Below are positions 1,783 through 17,081 of a stretch of 58,632 nucleotides of DNA, one piece after another; position 1 is the stretch's first letter; the number at the start of each line of letters is the position of its first letter. The DNA lies in contig JBDTUN010000311.1 of assembly GCA_040007715.1 (NCBI GenBank), forward strand, positions 1 through 58,632. The letters run 5' to 3'. Position numbers and translations under genes: made by a program. This stretch comes from Acidobacteriota bacterium. Lineage in GTDB: Bacteria; Acidobacteriota; Blastocatellia; RBC074. The notes under the pieces are model-generated. The model made no database searches, was not told the DNA's origin, and saw only the letters and a program-made list of their open reading frames with translations.

Positions 1783-2982
1783 ATGAAGCGAAGAGATTTT
1801 CTAACAGGCATCACTGCAACAGCAATTACTGCTGCTTCATATTTGCGCATCGTTGGCGCAAATGACCGGCTGGGAATGGCGCTGGCAGGCAGCGGGCGGC
1901 GCGGGCGCGAGGTGATGAAGGCGTTTCTTTCAACCGGCAAAATCGAGCTTCGCTGCATCGCCGATGTTTACGACGTGCAGCGCGCGCGGGCGCGGGACTT
2001 TCTGGGTGTCAAGCCGCCGGATGCCGTCGCGATTGAAGACGCCTTGAACCGCAAGGACGTTGACGCCGTGCTGATTGGTTCGCCCGATCACCTGCATCTG
2101 ACGCACACGCTCACCGGCCTCAACGCGGGCAAGCACATCTATCTGGAAAAGCCGGCTTCGCACAACTTTGACGAAGGGGCGAAGTTCATCGAAGCCGTTC
2201 GCAAAAGCGGAAAGGTCTGTCAGACCGGCACGCAACAACGCAGCGGCGCGCATTACCGCCGCGCCAAAGAAGAGATATTTGCTCAGGGCAAATTGGGCAA
2301 AGTCGTTTTTGCCCGCGCTGTCTGGCACGACTTTCCGTGGCAGCGCCGCAAGATCGAACCGCAGCCGAAGCCTGCGGGCCTGGATTGGGAACGCTTTCTT
2401 GGCCCAGCGCCCAAAGTACCGTACGACTGGATTCGTTATGATTCGTGGCGTTACTTCCCGGATTACGGCGGGGGCTTGCTGGCGGACATTCTGACGCATT
2501 GGGCCGACGTGGCGCAGTGGATGATGAACGAATCGCGCCCGCTGAACGCAGTGGCTACTGGCGGCATTTACCAGATGAACGATGGCCGGGTGAATCCGGA
2601 CACAGTCAACGCCGTGTTGCAGTACGCGGGCGGCAATAACGGCAATTGGAATCTGACGTTTGAATCTTCGGTGCTGCCGATCCGCAATGAACGCCCGGGC
2701 GTCTTTTTTCAAGGCACGGAAGGCACGCTGGAAATCACACGGGCCGATTACGTCTTTACGCCAGCCAAAGGCGATGCGCAGGTGGTCAAAGCCGAAGGCA
2801 GTCTGGAGGTCGCGCACGCCAATGATTTTCTCGACGCGGTGAAGAACGGCAAACGTCCAAATGCGGATATTCAGATTGGCGTCGAAGCCTGCAATCCGGT
2901 GCATTTGGCGAAGGCTGCGTATTGGCAGAAGAAGCGGATGACGTTTGATGCCTCAGGCACGAAGATTGTCGAAGGGGTATAG
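1783..2982 (+). CDS. Gfo/Idh/MocA family oxidoreductase with a TAT signal peptide
   Basis: 399-aa ORF. The N-terminus MKRRDFLTGITATAITAASYL carries a twin-arginine motif. It has a Rossmann-type block (LGMALAGSGRRG) and the typical family block HIYLEKP. Confidence 0.9.
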   Translation: MKRRDFLTGITATAITAASYLRIVGANDRLGMALAGSGRRGREVMKAFLSTGKIELRCIADVYDVQRARARDFLGVKPPDAVAIEDALNRKDVDAVLIGSPDHLHLTHTLTGLNAGKHIYLEKPASHNFDEGAKFIEAVRKSGKVCQTGTQQRSGAHYRRAKEEIFAQGKLGKVVFARAVWHDFPWQRRKIEPQPKPAGLDWERFLGPAPKVPYDWIRYDSWRYFPDYGGGLLADILTHWADVAQWMMNESRPLNAVATGGIYQMNDGRVNPDTVNAVLQYAGGNNGNWNLTFESSVLPIRNERPGVFFQGTEGTLEITRADYVFTPAKGDAQVVKAEGSLEVAHANDFLDAVKNGKRPNADIQIGVEACNPVHLAKAAYWQKKRMTFDASGTKIVEGV

Positions 2983-2985
2983 CCG

Positions 2986-3495
2986 ATGATTACGATTCGA
3001 CCCGAAAAGCCGGAAGACATCGCCGTCATTCACCAGATCAACGCTCAGGCATTTGGCAGCCCGGCTGAAGCGAATCTGGTTGACGCGTTGCGGCGCAATG
3101 GCAAGGCGATTTTATCGCTGGTCGCCGAAGATAATGGCCGCATCGTCGGACACATTCTCTTCAGCAAAGTCGTGATAGAGACAGGGACGCAACAAGTCCC
3201 CGGCATTGGTCTGGCGCCGTTGGCCGTTTCGCCGGAAAGGCAGAATGAAGGCATTGGTTCTTTGCTGGTCGAACATGGTTTGAAGATGTGCCGGGACGCC
3301 GGGCATCCGTTTGTCGTAGTGCTTGGGCATCCTGAATATTACCCGCGCTTCGGGTTTGTCCCTGCCAGCCGGTTTGGCGTCAAAAGCGAATTCGACGTGC
3401 GCGACGAAGTTTTCATGGTGACTGAATTACAACAAGGCTCGCTGCTGGGAGTGACTGGTATGGCCAAATATAACGATGAATTCAAGGCATTCTGA
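2986..3495 (+). CDS. GNAT family N-acetyltransferase (YhbS-like)
   Basis: 169 aa. It has an acetyl-CoA binding-like block (QNEGIGSLLVEHGL), and the size and organisation are typical of a GNAT. It starts 3 nt after the upstream stop. Confidence 0.85.
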   Translation: MITIRPEKPEDIAVIHQINAQAFGSPAEANLVDALRRNGKAILSLVAEDNGRIVGHILFSKVVIETGTQQVPGIGLAPLAVSPERQNEGIGSLLVEHGLKMCRDAGHPFVVVLGHPEYYPRFGFVPASRFGVKSEFDVRDEVFMVTELQQGSLLGVTGMAKYNDEFKAF

Positions 3496-11105: not shown

Positions 11106-12071
11106 ATGCCAGACATTTTAATTACCGAAAATATTATCGGTGAAGAGATGGACAAACTGCGCCAACGCTTCGACGCCGTCTTTGAACGGGAATTATGGAA
11201 AGAGCCAAACAAGTTGCAGGCGATGATTCCGAATTTCCGTGCTTTGGTTGCGCGCAATCAAACGCAGATTACGCGCGAATTGATCGAAGCCGGAACGCGA
11301 TTGGAAGTTATCGCGCGCGCTGGCGTCGGGATGGACAACGTGGATTTGGAAGCGGCTTCGCGCGCTGGGATCGTCGTCGCCTGGACGCCGGAGCAAAATT
11401 CAAATTCCGTCGCTGAATTGACGATTGGGCTGATGCTCAGTCTGGCGCGGATGATTCCTGACGCTGATGTTGACACCAAAAAGGGCGGCTGGAATCGGTG
11501 GAAATACATCGGCGTGGAACTGTCGGGCAAGACGCTCGGCATTGTTGGGTTGGGGCGCATCGGCAGTCTGACAGCGGCGAAAGCGCGCGCCTTGGGCATG
11601 GAGGTTCTCGCCTGCGATCCTTATGTTGATCCCGAAAGCTTGCGCGCGATGGAAGTGCGCGCGCGGCTGACCAGTCTTGACGAAGTTCTTTCACTATCCG
11701 ATTTCGTCTCGCTTCACGTGCCGGAGACGGACGAAACGCGCGGAATGTTCGGCGACGAACAATTTCGCCGGATGAAGCCGGGCGCTTATTTCATCAACGC
11801 TGCTCGCGGCGGCGTGGTTAGGGAGGACGATTTGCTATGCGCTTTGCAGGAAAAGCGCATAGCGGGCGCGGCGTTGGATGTCCGACAGCAGGAACCCGGC
11901 GTGCCGAGCGCTTTTGATGACATGGCCAACGTCATTTTGCTGCCGCACATCGGCGCACAAACGCAGGAAGCACAACGCCGAGTAGTCACCGCCGTTTGCC
12001 GCGATGTGACTGCTATTTTGAACGGCGGAGAAGCAAAGCACTTCGCGAATTTTAGCAGGCCACGGCGATAA
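11106..12071 (+). CDS. D-isomer-specific 2-hydroxyacid dehydrogenase (phosphoglycerate dehydrogenase-like, no ACT domain)
   Basis: 321 aa. The NAD-binding motif is GIVGLGRIGS. The catalytic-domain blocks ARAGVGMDNVD and LLPHIGAQT are present. Confidence 0.85.
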   Translation: MPDILITENIIGEEMDKLRQRFDAVFERELWKEPNKLQAMIPNFRALVARNQTQITRELIEAGTRLEVIARAGVGMDNVDLEAASRAGIVVAWTPEQNSNSVAELTIGLMLSLARMIPDADVDTKKGGWNRWKYIGVELSGKTLGIVGLGRIGSLTAAKARALGMEVLACDPYVDPESLRAMEVRARLTSLDEVLSLSDFVSLHVPETDETRGMFGDEQFRRMKPGAYFINAARGGVVREDDLLCALQEKRIAGAALDVRQQEPGVPSAFDDMANVILLPHIGAQTQEAQRRVVTAVCRDVTAILNGGEAKHFANFSRPRR

Positions 12072-12116
12072 CGTTCGCTGTCACAGGCAACGGCGTTCAA
12101 GCTTGAAGTCAAAATC

Positions 12117-12156
12117 AAAACCGCCGGGAAGACTTTCGTGATCTCCCGGCGGTTTT
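12117..12156. terminator. Bidirectional intrinsic terminator between the dehydrogenase gene and rpmB
   Basis: AAAA, then CCGCCGGGA (12121-12129), a loop, then TCCCGGCGG (12144-12152), then TTTT. It lies between convergent genes. Confidence 0.6.
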
Positions 12157-12190
12157 GCTTTGGGTTTGAATCTTGGTATAGGTTTTGGCC

Positions 12191-12427
12191 TCAAACTTTC
12201 TCGCCGTTAGCGCGAATATCGGCCAGCACTTTTTCGATCCCGTGCTTATCAACTGTCTTGATCCCGCGCGCTGAGACGCGCAGACGCACCCAGCGTTTTT
12301 CGCTCGGAATCCAGAACCGGTGCCACTGCAAGTTCGGCTCGAAGCGGCGCTTCGTTCGGTTGTTCGCGTGGGAGACGTTGTTGCCCGACATCGGTTTCTT
12401 GCCGGTCACCTGACATCTTTTAGCCAT
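12191..12427 (-). CDS. rpmB: 50S ribosomal protein L28
   Basis: An internal ATG at 12427 is preceded by GGAGGAG. The 78-aa product [34 protein letters not shown]... carries the canonical L28 N-terminus. The 115-aa track ORF over-extends it. Confidence 0.9.
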
Positions 12428-12634
12428 TGAATACTCCTCCTGGTGAAAAAATTGCGTATGATTGAAGGGCGGGAAGATAACACACGGACGCCGGAAAAGG
12501 CTAACGATCCGGGCGGGTTTTGGGATTTTATGCGGCAAAACCTTTGGCGGCCCATTGAGCAGCTTGACAGTTTCAGAAGGGAAATGTTTGATAGTGGCTG
12601 TCTGGAAAATTTTGCCCGCGACTGCTGATGACTA

Positions 12635-13279
12635 ATGATAAAACGGGGCCGCTTCCTCCTGCTTCTGCTGCTGATTTCCGCTGTTGTAGCCTTCGGTTAC
12701 ATACATTTCCAGGTTCACAGCTACGATAATCAGATCATCACCAACATCAACGAACTCGACACGAATGGTTGGGGGCGTCCGCGCGTGGCCATTGTGTTCG
12801 GCGCAAGCGTGTACGGCAATGGCGATCTTTCCCCGGTTCTGGAAGACCGCGTGGACACGGCAATAGAGCTTTACCGCGCGCGCAAAGTGGATCGCATCCT
12901 GGTTTCCGGCGACAACCGCCACCCAAGTTACAATGAGCCGAAGGCCATGCAGGAATATCTGGTCACGCATGCGGTTGCGGCGAAAGATGTGGTGGTGGAT
13001 TACGCCGGACGCTCGACATATGAAACCTGTCTGCGCGCGAAAGAAATATTTGGATTGCAGCGCGCCGTGCTGGTTTCGCAGCGCTATCACTTGCCGCGAG
13101 CTCTCTACATTGCCAATCAATTGGGACTTGATGCTGTTGGGATGGCCGGTGATTTACGGACAAAGAGCAAGGTTGATTACCAGAGCGTTCGTGAGTGGGC
13201 GGCAGAGGTGAAGGCTTATCTGAATCTGAAGTATTTTCCGCCTGATGCGCTGCTGGGACAGAAAGAACCGATTCGATGA
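12635..13279 (+). CDS. SanA/YdcF (DUF218) family protein
   Basis: 214 aa with an N-terminal TM segment. The DUF218-type blocks VFGASVYGNG...DRILVSGDN...VSQRYHLPRA are present. Confidence 0.8.
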   Translation: MIKRGRFLLLLLLISAVVAFGYIHFQVHSYDNQIITNINELDTNGWGRPRVAIVFGASVYGNGDLSPVLEDRVDTAIELYRARKVDRILVSGDNRHPSYNEPKAMQEYLVTHAVAAKDVVVDYAGRSTYETCLRAKEIFGLQRAVLVSQRYHLPRALYIANQLGLDAVGMAGDLRTKSKVDYQSVREWAAEVKAYLNLKYFPPDALLGQKEPIR

Positions 13280-13290
13280 CACCAGGTTTC

Positions 13291-13319
13291 TTGACGGATT
13301 CACCGGGCTTGCGCATAAT
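13291..13319 (+). promoter_or_regulatory. Sigma70-like promoter for the phe leader transcript
   Basis: TTGACG (13291-13296), a 17-nt spacer, then CATAAT (13314-13319). The first ATG downstream is the leader ORF start at 13362. Confidence 0.5.
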
Positions 13320-13361
13320 GCCGCCCGTCATAAATCTTCTTTATCAAATCTTCAAAACGAT

Positions 13362-13523
13362 ATGGCACTTTGGCTGACTACAACGCAGGCACTCAATCGC
13401 GGCACTGAAAGCTTTGCAGCGCGTGTGGCGAATTGGTTTGCCTGGCCTTTCTCCTTTGGGTTTGGCTTCTATTTTTATTTTTACTTTAGCCGCTCCAGAG
13501 GGGTTGGGAGTTCGTTAGCCTGA
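13362..13523 (+). CDS. Aromatic-amino-acid-rich leader peptide (53 aa) of the pheA-DAHP synthase operon
   Basis: MALWLTTTQALNRGTESFAARVANWFAWPFSFGFGFYFYFYFSRSRGVGSSLA. Codons 25-42 (13434-13487) include 8 Phe, 3 Tyr and 2 Trp. The start is uncertain; an in-frame GTG at 13425 is possible. Confidence 0.6.
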   Translation: MALWLTTTQALNRGTESFAARVANWFAWPFSFGFGFYFYFYFSRSRGVGSSLA

Positions 13524-13547
13524 AGCAAACGGAACACCTGAAAACAT

Positions 13548-13592
13548 AAGGCCCCTCGTTCAACACTCGAACGAGGGGCCTTTCGGTTTTTT
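13548..13592 (+). terminator. Intrinsic terminator (attenuator) ending at the pheA start codon
   Basis: A 14-bp stem pairs AAGGCCCCTCGTTC (13548-13561) with GAACGAGGGGCCTT (13569-13582) around a 7-nt loop. Downstream the sequence reads TTTCGGTTTTTT from 13581, and its first two Ts are the last two stem bases. The pheA ATG is at 13593. Confidence 0.8.
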
Positions 13593-14453
13593 ATGAACAC
13601 AGAAAAGAAAAATCCACGAGTCGCTTTTCAAGGGGAACTAGGCGCGTTCAGCAGTCAGGCTGCGCGCAAACTGCTCGGCGATGGAATCACGCTGGCGCCG
13701 TGCGAGACATTCGACCAGATGTTCGCGTCGGTCGAAAACGGCCAGAGCGATTACTGTCTGGCGCCGATGGAAAACTCGCTTTTCGGTTCGGTCTATCAAA
13801 ACTACGACCTGCTGCTCAAACACAACCTGACGATTGTCGGCGAAATCAGCCTGCGGATAGTCCACAACCTGATCGCGCCGCCCGGGGTGAAGCTGGAAGC
13901 GGTCGAGCGGGTCTACTCGCATCCGGTGGCGCTGGCACAGTGCCAGAAGTTTTTAGCCTCACATCCTGCAATGAAGTCCGTGGAAGCCTACGACACGGCG
14001 GGCAGCGTCAAAATGTTGATGGAGAGTCGCGAAGCCGGAGCCGCCGCGATTGCCAGCGCCGCCGCCGCTGAAGTTTATGGCGCGCAAATTTTAGCCGCAG
14101 GCATTGAGGACGATCAACAGAACTTCACACGCTTCTTGCTGCTCGCGCGCGCGGCCGAGGCAAGCAAGCCGTCGCCTGAAGCCGATAAAACTTCAATTGT
14201 CTTTGCGCTGGAACACCGCACGGGCGCGCTCTTTCGCGCAATGGCAGTGCTGGCGCTGCGCGAGATTGATCTGATGAAGATCGAGTCGCGGCCACTCATT
14301 GGCCGTCCGTGGGAATACAGTTTCTACGTGGACTTTATTGGCAACACCGCCGAACCACGCGTGCAAAATGCGCTGGCGCATCTGGCGGAGTTTGCGACGA
14401 ACGTCAAAGTTCTGGGATGTTATCGGCGAGCGCCGAAAAACACTGACGGGTGA
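13593..14453 (+). CDS. pheA: Prephenate dehydratase with a C-terminal ACT domain
   Basis: 286 aa. It shows VAFQGELGAFS, the CLAPMENSLFGSV block and the TRFLLL motif, plus an ACT domain with ESRP (KIESRPL). Confidence 0.9.
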   Translation: MNTEKKNPRVAFQGELGAFSSQAARKLLGDGITLAPCETFDQMFASVENGQSDYCLAPMENSLFGSVYQNYDLLLKHNLTIVGEISLRIVHNLIAPPGVKLEAVERVYSHPVALAQCQKFLASHPAMKSVEAYDTAGSVKMLMESREAGAAAIASAAAAEVYGAQILAAGIEDDQQNFTRFLLLARAAEASKPSPEADKTSIVFALEHRTGALFRAMAVLALREIDLMKIESRPLIGRPWEYSFYVDFIGNTAEPRVQNALAHLAEFATNVKVLGCYRRAPKNTDG

Positions 14454-14522
14454 CAAGCAGAAAACTTGATCGCTCACTTCAAACTCAAACACCAAACCAA
14501 ACCTTTCAGGAGCATTTGAACA

Positions 14523-15542
14523 ATGATTATCGCTATGCAATCAGGAGCCACAGATGAACAGATTGATCATATTTGCGACCGCGTGCGCGAGTACGGCTAT
14601 GCGCCGCACGTGATTCGCGGCGCGGAACGCACAGTCGTCGCAGCCGTTGGGCCGGGGGACAAGAAAGAGCACATCGAGTCGCTTAAATCCGCCGATGGCG
14701 TCGAAGATGCTTTTCCGATCTTGCAGCCATTCAAACTGGTCAGCAAAGAGGTCAAAAAGCAAAAGTCGGTTATTAAGATCGGGAATGTCAGTATTGGTGA
14801 TGGCGGATTTGTGGTGATGGCCGGCCCTTGTTCGGTCGAAGGCCGCGAGCAGTTACTGACAACCGCCGTATCAGTCGCCAAATCCGGCGCGCATCTTCTG
14901 CGCGGTGGCGCTTACAAACCGCGCACATCGCCTTACGATTTTCAGGGAATGGCCGAAGATGGCTTGAAACTGTTGGCCGAAGCGCGCGAACTTACGGGTC
15001 TGGCCGTCATTACTGAAGTGCTGGATACAGGTGACGTTGACATCGTGGCTGAATACGCAGACGTGCTGCAGGTTGGCACGCGCAACATGCAGAACTTCGC
15101 GCTGCTCAAAAAACTGGGCGAAATCAAAAAGCCTGTCATGCTCAAACGCGGATTGTCGGCGACGATCAAAGAATTCCTGCTTTCGGCGGAATACATCGTC
15201 ACGCACGGCAACCCGAACGTGATGCTGTGTGAACGTGGCATCCGCACATTCGAGACGGCAACGCGCAACACGCTCGACTTGGCAGCGGTACCACTTTTGG
15301 GTGAACTGACTCACTTGCCTGTGATTGTTGATCCCAGCCACGCCACTGGTAAACGCAGTTTGGTGCGTCCTCTGGCAAAAGCGTCAGTCGCTGTCGGCGC
15401 GGATGGGTTGATGGCCGAAGTGCATCCGAAGCCGGAAGAAGCCTGGTCAGATGGACCACAGTCACTGCGGCTGGAAGAATTCTCGCAATTGATGCGCGAA
15501 ATCGAACCTTACATCAACTTGCGCAAGAGCGAGTCGAATTGA
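14523..15542 (+). CDS. aroF: 3-deoxy-7-phosphoheptulonate (DAHP) synthase, class I-beta, with an N-terminal ferredoxin-like regulatory domain
   Basis: 339 aa. An N-terminal domain of about 70 aa is followed by VMAGPCSVE...[17 protein letters not shown]...DPSH, as in Thermotoga-type DAHPS/KDO8PS-family enzymes. Confidence 0.9.
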
Positions 15543-15786
15543 TCCGGCGCGATCTCCGGGCAGCTTGTGGCGCGAGCTTTTGAACTCAAGCCACAAGCCG
15601 TCCATACACCTACTAATTGACTCCTTGCCCATCTCCATCCCTGCGTGACACAATGATCGCGCTTCAAAGAAACGCGGACTCCTCCTCCTTCTGACAATAA
15701 AATATTGATTGATTGTTCTTGTTGCCTTCGTTGGTTCCAGTGGGTTTGAAACAGATTTGAGGGATTATTTACGTGTCGAATGGGTG

Positions 15787-16047
15787 ATGCTGATTATGCG
15801 AGTAAAGAAAACAGCTCTGATTATTTGCAATGATGGCAAAGAGTATTGGATTACACAGAAGCAGTTCTGGAATATGGTGCGAGAAAGAGTGGTTGAACAA
15901 ACGGGCGATCAACCGCTGCAAGGAAAATTTCGCGGGCGCGATGATCAGCTTTTGATCACGCTGAATCACACTGTGCTCAACCAGGCAACGCCGATTCATA
16001 CAGGTGAGTTCTTGCAGAACTCCCGGCTTAAAAAGAGCCGCCGTTGA
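15787..16047 (+). CDS. Hypothetical small protein
   Basis: Internal ATG of the 112-aa track ORF; the start is uncertain (15709, 15787 or 15796). The region is AT-richer. I recognised no family. Confidence 0.35.
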   Translation: MLIMRVKKTALIICNDGKEYWITQKQFWNMVRERVVEQTGDQPLQGKFRGRDDQLLITLNHTVLNQATPIHTGEFLQNSRLKKSRR

Positions 16048-16233
16048 GCGTTGCCAGTGAGGGAAGGTGGAATTGCGATTTTCTCCAAGCTCCTTCGGGA
16101 ACTTTTTTCTTCTGGTTGCGTGTCAGTGCCAGCTAGTGTGAGGAAGGCCTAAACAAATACGAGCACTACAACACTCGCAAGTAGGTCTTAATAATCGCAT
16201 CGCATAGAGTGGCTATTCGCCAATACACGAACG

Positions 16234-16268
16234 GGGAACCGATGACTTGTGAGGGGACATCGGTTCCC
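16234..16268. terminator. Hairpin between convergent genes (probable bidirectional terminator)
   Basis: GGGAACCGATG (16234-16244) pairs with CATCGGTTCCC (16258-16268), followed by TTTCGTGTTTT on the + strand. Confidence 0.45.
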
Positions 16269-16310
16269 TTTCGTGTTTTCTGGCATCGAATATTTCTCGC
16301 AATTCTGATT

Positions 16311-17081
16311 TCAGCCGCAAAGCACCGAGCCGCCGTTGACGTTCAAAATCTCTCCGGTGATGTGACGCGCCATGTCGGAAGCCAGAAACAGAATTGAGTA
16401 AGCCACATCTTCAGACGATGCCACGCGCCCAAGCGGGATGGCAGCGTTGACCTGTTGGCGCTTCTCTTCGCTGACGCGCAAGGCCGAAGCAGCCATCTCG
16501 GTATCAATCCACCCCGGCGCGACACAGTTCACACGTACATTGAACCGACCCAACTCAGCAGCGAGTGATTTGGTGAAGCTGATGCACGCGCCTTTCGATG
16601 CGGCGTAATCAGAATGGAAAGCTTCGCCGCGCTGACCGGCGGTTGAACTGATGATGACGATGTTGCCGCTTTGTTGGCCGGTTAAGATGCGGGCCGCTTC
16701 GCGGCAGACGTAAAAGACGCCGTTGACGTTAATCCGCATCGTCTCGCCCCACTGGGCGTCGTCAAGCTCGGTGATGGCGCGGTCTTCGGCGGGCCACACG
16801 CCTGCATTTGCCACGACTATATCGAGCCTCTCAAAACGATCCATTGTTTGCCGAACCAGCGACTGTGCCTGGTCAGAGTGCGAAACGTCGGCCTGAACGA
16901 GCAAGGCTTTCGCGCCCGCACGCTCGACTGCTTCGGCTACAGTCAAGGCCGCGTCGCGATTCGCTCGATAATTGATGACTACACCTGCCGCGCCCGCTTC
17001 TGCGAATTTGATTGCCGTTGCCGCGCCTACGCCGCGCGATGCCCCGGTGATCAAGGCGATTTGATTCTTGAAACAGAGCAT
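16311..17081 (-). CDS. SDR family oxidoreductase (FabG-like)
   Basis: Internal ATG at 17081 gives 256 aa: MLCFKNQIALITGASRGVGAA (TGxxxGxG), then NAG and the YAASKGA catalytic motif. Confidence 0.85.
   Translation of the reverse strand: MLCFKNQIALITGASRGVGAATAIKFAEAGAAGVVINYRANRDAALTVAEAVERAGAKALLVQADVSHSDQAQSLVRQTMDRFERLDIVVANAGVWPAEDRAITELDDAQWGETMRINVNGVFYVCREAARILTGQQSGNIVIISSTAGQRGEAFHSDYAASKGACISFTKSLAAELGRFNVRVNCVAPGWIDTEMAASALRVSEEKRQQVNAAIPLGRVASSEDVAYSILFLASDMARHITGEILNVNGGSVLCG

Follow-up and report, generated by a model that had tools for sequence, protein, structure and literature searches.

The 58,632-nucleotide (nt) contig JBDTUN010000311.1 of an Acidobacteriota bacterium from the class Blastocatellia (assembly GCA_040007715.1), the whole of which is referred to here as the window, carries directly upstream of its pheA gene a leader region (positions 13291–13592) that very probably represents a classical ribosome-mediated transcription attenuator, controlling an operon in which the gene for DAHP synthase (DAHPS) follows pheA as the second gene. 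An attenuator of this kind had been proposed in a preliminary description made from the sequence of the window alone, and the proposal is supported in silico by the analyses reported here. These analyses have identified, between a promoter and the first gene of the operon, a short open reading frame (ORF) enriched in phenylalanine (Phe) codons, an intrinsic terminator, a mutually exclusive antiterminator together with a segment able to sequester one of its strands, and an arrangement of these parts that is consistent with control by a translating ribosome. The promoter, the ORF, its Phe run, and the terminator are conserved in related genomes, where the module remains linked to pheA and DAHPS. 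Related loci were obtained by a PheA protein scan with one genome per species, which returned 64 loci, and leaders were sought in the 450 nt upstream of each pheA; counts given out of 25 refer to approximately 25 distinct leader sequences, several loci being near-duplicates. Individual loci are designated by L numbers.

The gap that separates the upstream DUF218/SanA-like gene's stop codon (position 13279) from the pheA ATG is 313 nt, and the coordinates given in the preliminary description for this gap, and for the promoter, the leader ORF, its aromatic codons, and the perfect hairpin within it, have all been confirmed (Table 1). The promoter is the top sigma-70-like match within positions 12000–16500 (10/12), and the sequence CTTGAC-N17-(G/C)ATAAT is aligned in about 20 of the 25 related loci with a fixed spacing to the leader ATG. 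The leader frame stays open in the 5' direction as far as an ATG at 13245 inside the DUF218 gene, which lies upstream of the conserved promoter; in alignments of the upstream regions, the ATG equivalent to 13362 is conserved across the loci, and an in-frame ATG and stop codon are retained in 24 of the 25 leaders, notwithstanding indels and a weakly conserved N-terminal half. An additional ATG at 13318–13320 is out of frame and overlaps the −10 box. The occurrence of at least 13 aromatic residues in 18 codons has a probability of ~3e-11 per position, given the composition of the window (F 4.3%, Y 2.4%, W 1.2%). A scan of the window for further leader ORFs with runs of an amino acid gave no convincing case, and no tRNA genes were found in it.

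Between the −10 box and the leader ATG, the window also contains the palindrome ATAAA-TCTTC-TTTAT (13330–13344), which is kept in the form ATAA(A)-N5-7-(T)TTAT in loci L001–L007, L009, L011, L014, L023, and L031. This palindrome could serve a second regulator as its operator or fold into a stem at the 5' end of the transcript, and it might provide a second regulatory layer at the start of the transcript.

The region 13420–13600 folds with a z-score of −4.7 in comparison to dinucleotide shuffles and, as had been anticipated, it can form mutually exclusive antiterminator and terminator structures. Full-length folds of the window leader and of each of its relatives contain three hairpins, viz. 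1:2, S, and the terminator. The terminator, in which the 14-base pair (bp) stem is followed by TCGGTTTTTT and the pheA ATG at 13593, has a folding energy (ΔG) of −27.0 kcal/mol and is formed in all 25 full-length minimum free energy (MFE) folds. The anti-antiterminator hairpin 1:2 (13446–13508; ΔG −22.3 kcal/mol), which was overlooked in the preliminary description, has a 20-nt loop consisting of the FYFYFYF codons and a 3' arm that includes GAGGGG, and in 21 of the 25 full-length MFE folds segment 2 is paired with segment 1 and thereby sequestered. Hairpin S has an equivalent in most loci, with both-sided changes at 6 of its 9 pairs.

A stalled ribosome was simulated by masking the aromatic codons, using a uniform stall position, and ending the transcript before the 3' arm of the terminator. 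Under these conditions, segment 2 pairs with the 5' arm of the terminator as the MFE structure in 25/25 loci. The pairing of GAGGGG (13498–13503) with CCCCTC (13552–13557) that had been put forward as a candidate antiterminator is thus present in the folds, where it extends to 8 bp (13498–13505 with 13550–13557) and 3 further pairs (13506–13508 with 13537–13539) that enclose hairpin S, with a ΔG of about −21 to −22 kcal/mol in the window. The antiterminator takes up the U-tract-proximal 8 bp of the terminator stem, which is the part required for termination, and the two structures are mutually exclusive in all 25 loci. The sequence GAAAAC (13540–13545), located upstream of the terminator, is able to pair with the U tract (13586–13591). 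The terminator hairpin also scores as a minus-strand terminator and has a bidirectional appearance, though no convergent gene is present.

Table 1. Features of the pheA leader region and of the genes adjoining it (positions in the window).
Feature	Position	Strand	Characteristics
DUF218/SanA-like gene	12635–13279		Upstream neighbor of the leader
Promoter	13291–13319	+	−35 TTGACG 13291–13296; spacer 17 nt; −10 CATAAT 13314–13319
Leader ORF	13362–13523	+	53 codons and TGA 13521–13523; peptide MALWLTTTQALNRGTESFAARVANWFAWPFSFGFGFYFYFYFSRSRGVGSSLA, then stop
Regulatory aromatic codons 25–42	13434–13487	+	WFAWPFSFGFGFYFYFYF; 8 Phe, 3 Tyr, 2 Trp; alternating F-x-F-x
Segment 1, 5' arm of anti-antiterminator hairpin	13446–13467	+	Within the early aromatic codons; from MFE folds
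Segment 2, 3' arm of hairpin 1:2 and 5' strand of antiterminator	13488–13508	+	Contains GAGGGGUUGGG (13498–13508)
Hairpin S	13510–13535	+	Encloses stop codon TGA 13521–13523; inner part of antiterminator; ΔG −6.1
Antiterminator 3' strand	13537–13557	+	CCU 13537–13539 and GGCCCCUC 13550–13557 (U-tract-proximal half of terminator 5' arm)
Intrinsic terminator	13548–13592	+	14-bp stem, 13548–13561 with 13569–13582; 7-nt loop; followed by UCGGUUUUUU, which reaches the pheA ATG
pheA, monofunctional prephenate dehydratase	13593–14453	+	Pfam PDT, E = 3e-62; NCBIfam NF008865, 241.9 bits (cut-off 219)
DAHP synthase, class I-beta, N-terminal ferredoxin-like regulatory domain	14523–15542	+	Pfam DAHP_synth_1 and DAHP_snth_FXD; NCBIfam NF006421, 492 bits

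In the mechanism that we propose, transcription would start just 3' of the promoter and a ribosome would translate the leader ORF behind the RNA polymerase. When Phe-tRNA, and probably also tyrosine (Tyr)-tRNA, is plentiful, the ribosome would pass the aromatic codons and reach the stop codon in hairpin S, where it would melt this hairpin and occupy the space between segment 2 and the terminator arm; after its release, segment 2 would be captured by segment 1. With the ribosome either at the stop codon or released, the terminator (13548–13582 and the U tract) would form and the transcript would end just before pheA. When the charged tRNA is scarce, the ribosome would stall on the F/Y codons at 13449–13487 and cover or separate segment 1, leaving GAGGGGUUGGG free to pair with CCU and GGCCCCUC before the 3' arm of the terminator is made. 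The resulting antiterminator would block the U-tract-proximal half of the terminator stem, and the polymerase would continue into pheA and the DAHPS gene. With the last Phe codon (13485–13487) in the A site and footprint sizes taken from Escherichia coli, a footprint of ~12 nt would extend to about 13497; the first base of GAGGGG is 13498. From this arrangement we infer that the leader ORF is translated, that transcription responds to the supply of amino acids, and that the geometry would let a stalled ribosome free the strand needed for the antiterminator and let one positioned at the stop codon prevent its formation.

The loci closest to the window by their PheA proteins (58–81% identity to the PheA of the window) are from metagenome-assembled genomes (MAGs) of Blastocatellia. 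Before pheA, 24 Blastocatellia genomes at the species level, as well as 3 metagenome contigs, carry a conserved module consisting of the promoter, an ORF of 40–55 codons with Phe-x-Phe-x, a G-rich ORF tail, a stop-codon hairpin, and a GC hairpin with a U tract; conservation of the aromatic codon run and the hairpin upstream of orthologous pheA genes had been named as a check in the preliminary description. The in-frame Phe runs of these leaders include FGFGFYFYFYF, FEFGFYFSFYF, FSFSFWFSFYF, FAFYFRFYF, and RFSFFRFSFF, and in 24 loci the leader ORF ends 70–180 nt before pheA and is followed by the GC-rich hairpin and U tract. A covariance model (R1) built from 22 sequences identified 28 sites scoring 72–143 bits, some of them on contigs outside the training set; the window contains one copy only (13446–13591), and no match was obtained among the non-Blastocatellia loci. 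The loci from Terriglobia, Bryobacteraceae, Vicinamibacteria, and Thermoanaerobaculia have neither a Phe run nor a match to the covariance model, and their pheA genes are not followed by DAHPS. Metagenomes were also scanned with a strict DNA pattern, which yielded 46 matches, of which 3 are genuine copies and 43 are due to chance; the genuine copies are found upstream of pheA-DAHPS wherever the flanks permit this to be checked, and none of them precedes any other gene. The recurrence of this arrangement before pheA in the relatives, the low probability of the aromatic run, and the fold z-score together exclude a chance origin of the leader.

The proposed helices were also evaluated for covariation. 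The terminator helix is paired in 90% of the alignment cells with compensatory changes at 8 of its 14 pairs, and it is thus clearly supported by covariation in the aligned sequences. For the aligned antiterminator helix, 83% of the cells are paired and compensatory changes are found at 4 of 8 pairs; in alignment A1, pairing was 58–66% when the partner was slid by ±1 to +3 columns and lower at −2 and −3, and none of 500 shuffles scored as well. Changes in segment 2 are matched by changes in the terminator arm in several divergent loci, viz. AGAAGGGUC with GGCCCUUCU in L015, AGAGGCC with GGCCUCU in L018, and GGAGCGGG with CCCGCUCC in L025 and L028. The covariation of the antiterminator is real, but it comes from few lineages, and its support is weaker than that for the terminator. 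In helix 1:2, both-sided changes are observed at 10 of 18 pairs.

A number of observations weigh against the interpretation of this region as an attenuator. In the full-length RNA, the terminator state is 11–13 kcal/mol more stable than the antiterminated state, even when segment 1 is masked too. Since the terminator state is more stable at equilibrium, read-through must be kinetic, which is the general assumption for attenuators of this type. Helix 1:2 is paired in just 64% of the cells in a single consensus register, a value that was not raised by realignment to the covariance model; the low consensus pairing is due to a register that differs between subclades. RNAalifold, applied to the sequence alignment, recovers the terminator alone. 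In a swap test, duplexes between segment 2 and terminator arms were compared in energy within loci and between loci; in the main class, the pairing of a locus with its own partner was no better than that with another class, and a preference for the own partner was seen in the minority classes alone. This test does not discriminate for the main class because G-rich and C-rich strands pair generically; it is not counted as support here, and its outcome means that the covariation of the antiterminator rests on a few divergent lineages. Lastly, a Shine-Dalgarno sequence is absent at the leader ATG, as it is at ~60% of the clear genes in the window, pheA included.

The short ORF could instead encode a genuine small aromatic or hydrophobic protein that has its own terminator, in which case expression of pheA would depend on unregulated read-through or an undetected promoter. 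A length of 53 codons is considerable for a leader, the ORF is intact in 24 of 25 loci, and the C-terminal 29 residues are identical in some relatives, all of which would agree with a protein-coding role. However, conservation is weak in the N-terminal half, which contains indels and diverges far more quickly than the neighboring proteins, which are 80–92% identical. The Phe positions and the tail of the peptide are conserved, but the tail residues R-G-x-G change exactly together with the terminator arm, as is expected from a constraint acting on the RNA. Synonymous third positions are conserved at 0.54–0.84 in the tail versus 0.44–0.65 in pheA in most comparisons. The weak conservation of the N-terminus, the conserved tail, and the conserved third positions thus indicate that selection acts on the identity of codons and the structure of the RNA, not on a folded protein. 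Such a pattern is what a leader peptide should show, unlike a functional small protein or an arrest peptide. The peptide has no match in Pfam and none in NCBIfam at E ≤ 1, the terminator of the window adjoins pheA and leaves no space for another promoter, and the element is never found apart from pheA. Hence, a small protein is a very unlikely explanation for this ORF. The sequence UUUAGC, comprising the last Phe codon and a Ser codon (13485–13490 in the window), is invariant in all 25 leaders despite the divergence of its flanks; it may contribute to the closure of hairpin 1:2 or mark a position of pausing or stalling.

Another explanation is that the switch is driven by a factor acting in trans, i.e., a TRAP- or PyrR-type protein, a small molecule bound by a riboswitch, or an uncharged tRNA, and that the ORF is incidental. 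Alternative RNA structures do not by themselves identify the sensor, and the conserved palindrome upstream of the leader ATG hints at an additional factor. However, no Rfam family, T-box and known riboswitches included, was matched at the gathering threshold in the whole window, and a search of 13200–13700 at E ≤ 10 gave no leader family and only spurious hairpin matches of microRNA and small-RNA models on the terminator. What persists in every lineage is not a candidate ligand pocket but the presence of in-frame Phe codons together with the boundaries of the ORF, and the stop codon is located within the antiterminator, as is predicted for sensing by a ribosome. We therefore consider a trans-acting sensor to be highly improbable.

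It is less probable still that a free amino acid induces the nascent aromatic peptide to arrest the ribosome, in a TnaC- or SecM-like manner, instead of the ribosome responding to tRNA charging. The unusual length of the leader and the conservation of its C-terminal tail in the closest group would favor such an arrest peptide, but across the wider clade the tail differs as a peptide (SRSRGVGSSLA, SGQRGEQGSPA, STAAIAEGAGV, SLPIEAISSAR), and its RNA sequence covaries with the terminator arm, and peptide-mediated arrest is unnecessary given an intrinsic terminator and an alternative pairing.

The gene upstream of the leader is a DUF218 gene in the majority of the leader-bearing loci, but L004, L005, and L017 have a divergently transcribed response regulator in this place, and L025, L028, and L059 an unrelated gene, each of these loci nonetheless carrying the complete module. 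The upstream gene thus varies while pheA-DAHPS is constant, indicating that the module is tied to the latter. The conserved promoter and the conserved ATG further indicate that the leader has a promoter of its own and that the hairpin is not merely the terminator of the upstream gene, in agreement with what had been inferred earlier from its distance to the SanA-like stop codon. Hence, although the hairpin is the first terminator-like site past the DUF218 stop codon and the reading frame is open back into DUF218, the idea that it terminates the upstream gene, with the aromatic ORF arising by chance in a T-rich spacer, is the most improbable of those considered, given the intervening promoter, the variable upstream gene, and an aromatic run that is both improbable by chance and conserved in frame. 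On the above evidence, we have therefore considered but rejected the readings of this region as a terminator of the upstream gene, as a real small protein, as a riboswitch or T-box, and as an arrest peptide like TnaC.

With regard to the amino acids that the attenuator would sense, the preliminary description had suggested all three aromatic amino acids, and this suggestion is supported only in part. Phe accounts for 4–12 of the last 33 codons in all 25 leaders (background 4.3%), and on the basis of these sequences we conclude that Phe is the primary signal and a universal one. Tyr is the commonest inter-Phe residue, occupying 40 of the 114 positions flanked by Phe (35% versus a 2.4% background, in sequences that are phylogenetically related), and it is probably a co-signal in the main clade, but among the most divergent leaders L018 and L025 lack it and L028 and L059 have few Tyr codons. 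Tryptophan (Trp) codons number 0–2 per leader and are mostly located upstream of the run, and the sensing of Trp is unproven. The interleaved Phe and Tyr codons and the occasional upstream Trp codons could reflect a multivalent aromatic sensor that integrates two or three tRNA charging states, an interpretation that we regard as possible but somewhat doubtful; the enrichment of Tyr could instead come in part from a demand for U/A-rich codons that leave the loop unstructured. If the sensor is multivalent, a single attenuator would determine how strongly the pathway-entry DAHP synthase and the enzyme of the Phe branch are both expressed.

The identification of the two downstream genes as encoding prephenate dehydratase and DAHP synthase is upheld by their Pfam and NCBIfam matches (Table 1). 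In all leader-bearing loci of sufficient length, DAHPS is located immediately 3' of pheA and is itself followed by a conserved small ORF. In the window, this small ORF (15709–16047, conserved from ~15790) lies directly 3' of the DAHPS gene, and ~83 of its residues are 68–88% identical in all Blastocatellia loci that extend there. It matches no Pfam or NCBIfam family and may be a third gene of the operon.

Some individual loci show peculiarities of their own. The promoter region of L018 (~2400–2640) is replaced by tandem repeats of the GTGATGGTGATAGCT type; tandem GCAGTTTTTGGAGAGNG repeats are located between the terminator and pheA in L025 (~2900–3000); and a second long inverted repeat (GGGGCAGACCTGCGTGTCTGCCCC) occupies the corresponding interval in L015 (~2880–2990). 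The MAGs containing L001, L005, and L012 carry the labels "uncultured Heliomicrobium sp." or "Heliobacteriaceae" (Bacillota). The DUF218-leader-pheA-DAHPS regions of these three loci are syntenic with, and 73–92% identical to, those of Blastocatellia, and the Bacillota labels are probably wrong.

The Acidobacteriota are abundant in soil and their genetics has been little studied, and to our knowledge almost no cis-regulatory RNAs with an assigned function are available for this phylum. The leader described here would extend classical leader-peptide attenuation to the Acidobacteriota (class Blastocatellia), and the mechanism implies a tight coupling of transcription and translation. An alignment and a covariance model with ~28 members are now available for this new cis-regulatory family, and the model would improve the annotation of genomes in which the ORF is otherwise recorded as a hypothetical protein or overlooked. 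The family also offers a natural case of a Phe attenuator that evolved independently and without homology to those known, the F-x-F-x design of which may sense Phe and Tyr jointly. The preliminary description was not aware of any account of leader-peptide attenuation in Acidobacteriota; likewise, no report was found in the literature that was searched, which did not cover the 2010 survey by Lopatovskaya et al. A paper from 2016 gives a statistical peak of short upstream ORFs and nothing further (PMC4833913).

In comparison with known systems, we regard the Blastocatellia leader as a new, non-homologous example of the class of classical ribosome-mediated attenuators, which is well supported by our in silico sequence and folding analyses. 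The closest functional counterpart is E. coli pheL (Rfam Phe_leader; PMC3082878), which is likewise a Phe-rich short ORF before pheA, with a terminator and an antiterminator as alternatives and stalling on Phe codons. However, pheL is not homologous to the Blastocatellia leader (no Rfam match at E ≤ 10 and no NCBIfam match); it has ~15 codons compared to 53, and runs of Phe codons in place of Phe codons alternating with others and interspersed with Tyr, and the E. coli gene encodes a chorismate mutase/prephenate dehydratase fusion, whereas the operon described here contains a monofunctional prephenate dehydratase and DAHP synthase. With E. coli trpL, the leader shares an organization into four segments, in which segment 1 extends over regulatory codons, segment 2 switches its partner, and 3:4 is the terminator; it also shares a stop codon positioned such that a non-stalled ribosome prevents 2:3, and the expectation that an untranslated leader would give 1:2 and 3:4, i.e., superattenuation. 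Unlike trpL, most of the regulatory codons are located in the loop of hairpin 1:2, the antiterminator is composite and encloses an additional stop-codon hairpin, and the amino acid and the lineage are different. The use of mixed codons for several end products is known from the E. coli ilvGMEDA (Leu/Val/Ile) and thr (Thr/Ile) leaders, to which Phe and Tyr, and perhaps Trp, before the entry enzyme of the common pathway would correspond here, although multivalency in the present case is deduced from the enrichment of Tyr, which is missing from the most divergent leaders. The leader-peptide attenuators predicted for Actinobacteria (PMC1262725), the hisS leader found in bacilli (PMC2965389), and the ilvB upstream ORF of Corynebacterium (PMC10272879) are similarly lineage-specific, non-homologous leaders of amino-acid genes from outside the Proteobacteria that were recognized by comparative genomics, and the Blastocatellia leader differs from them in its phylum, its amino acid, and the operon that it precedes.

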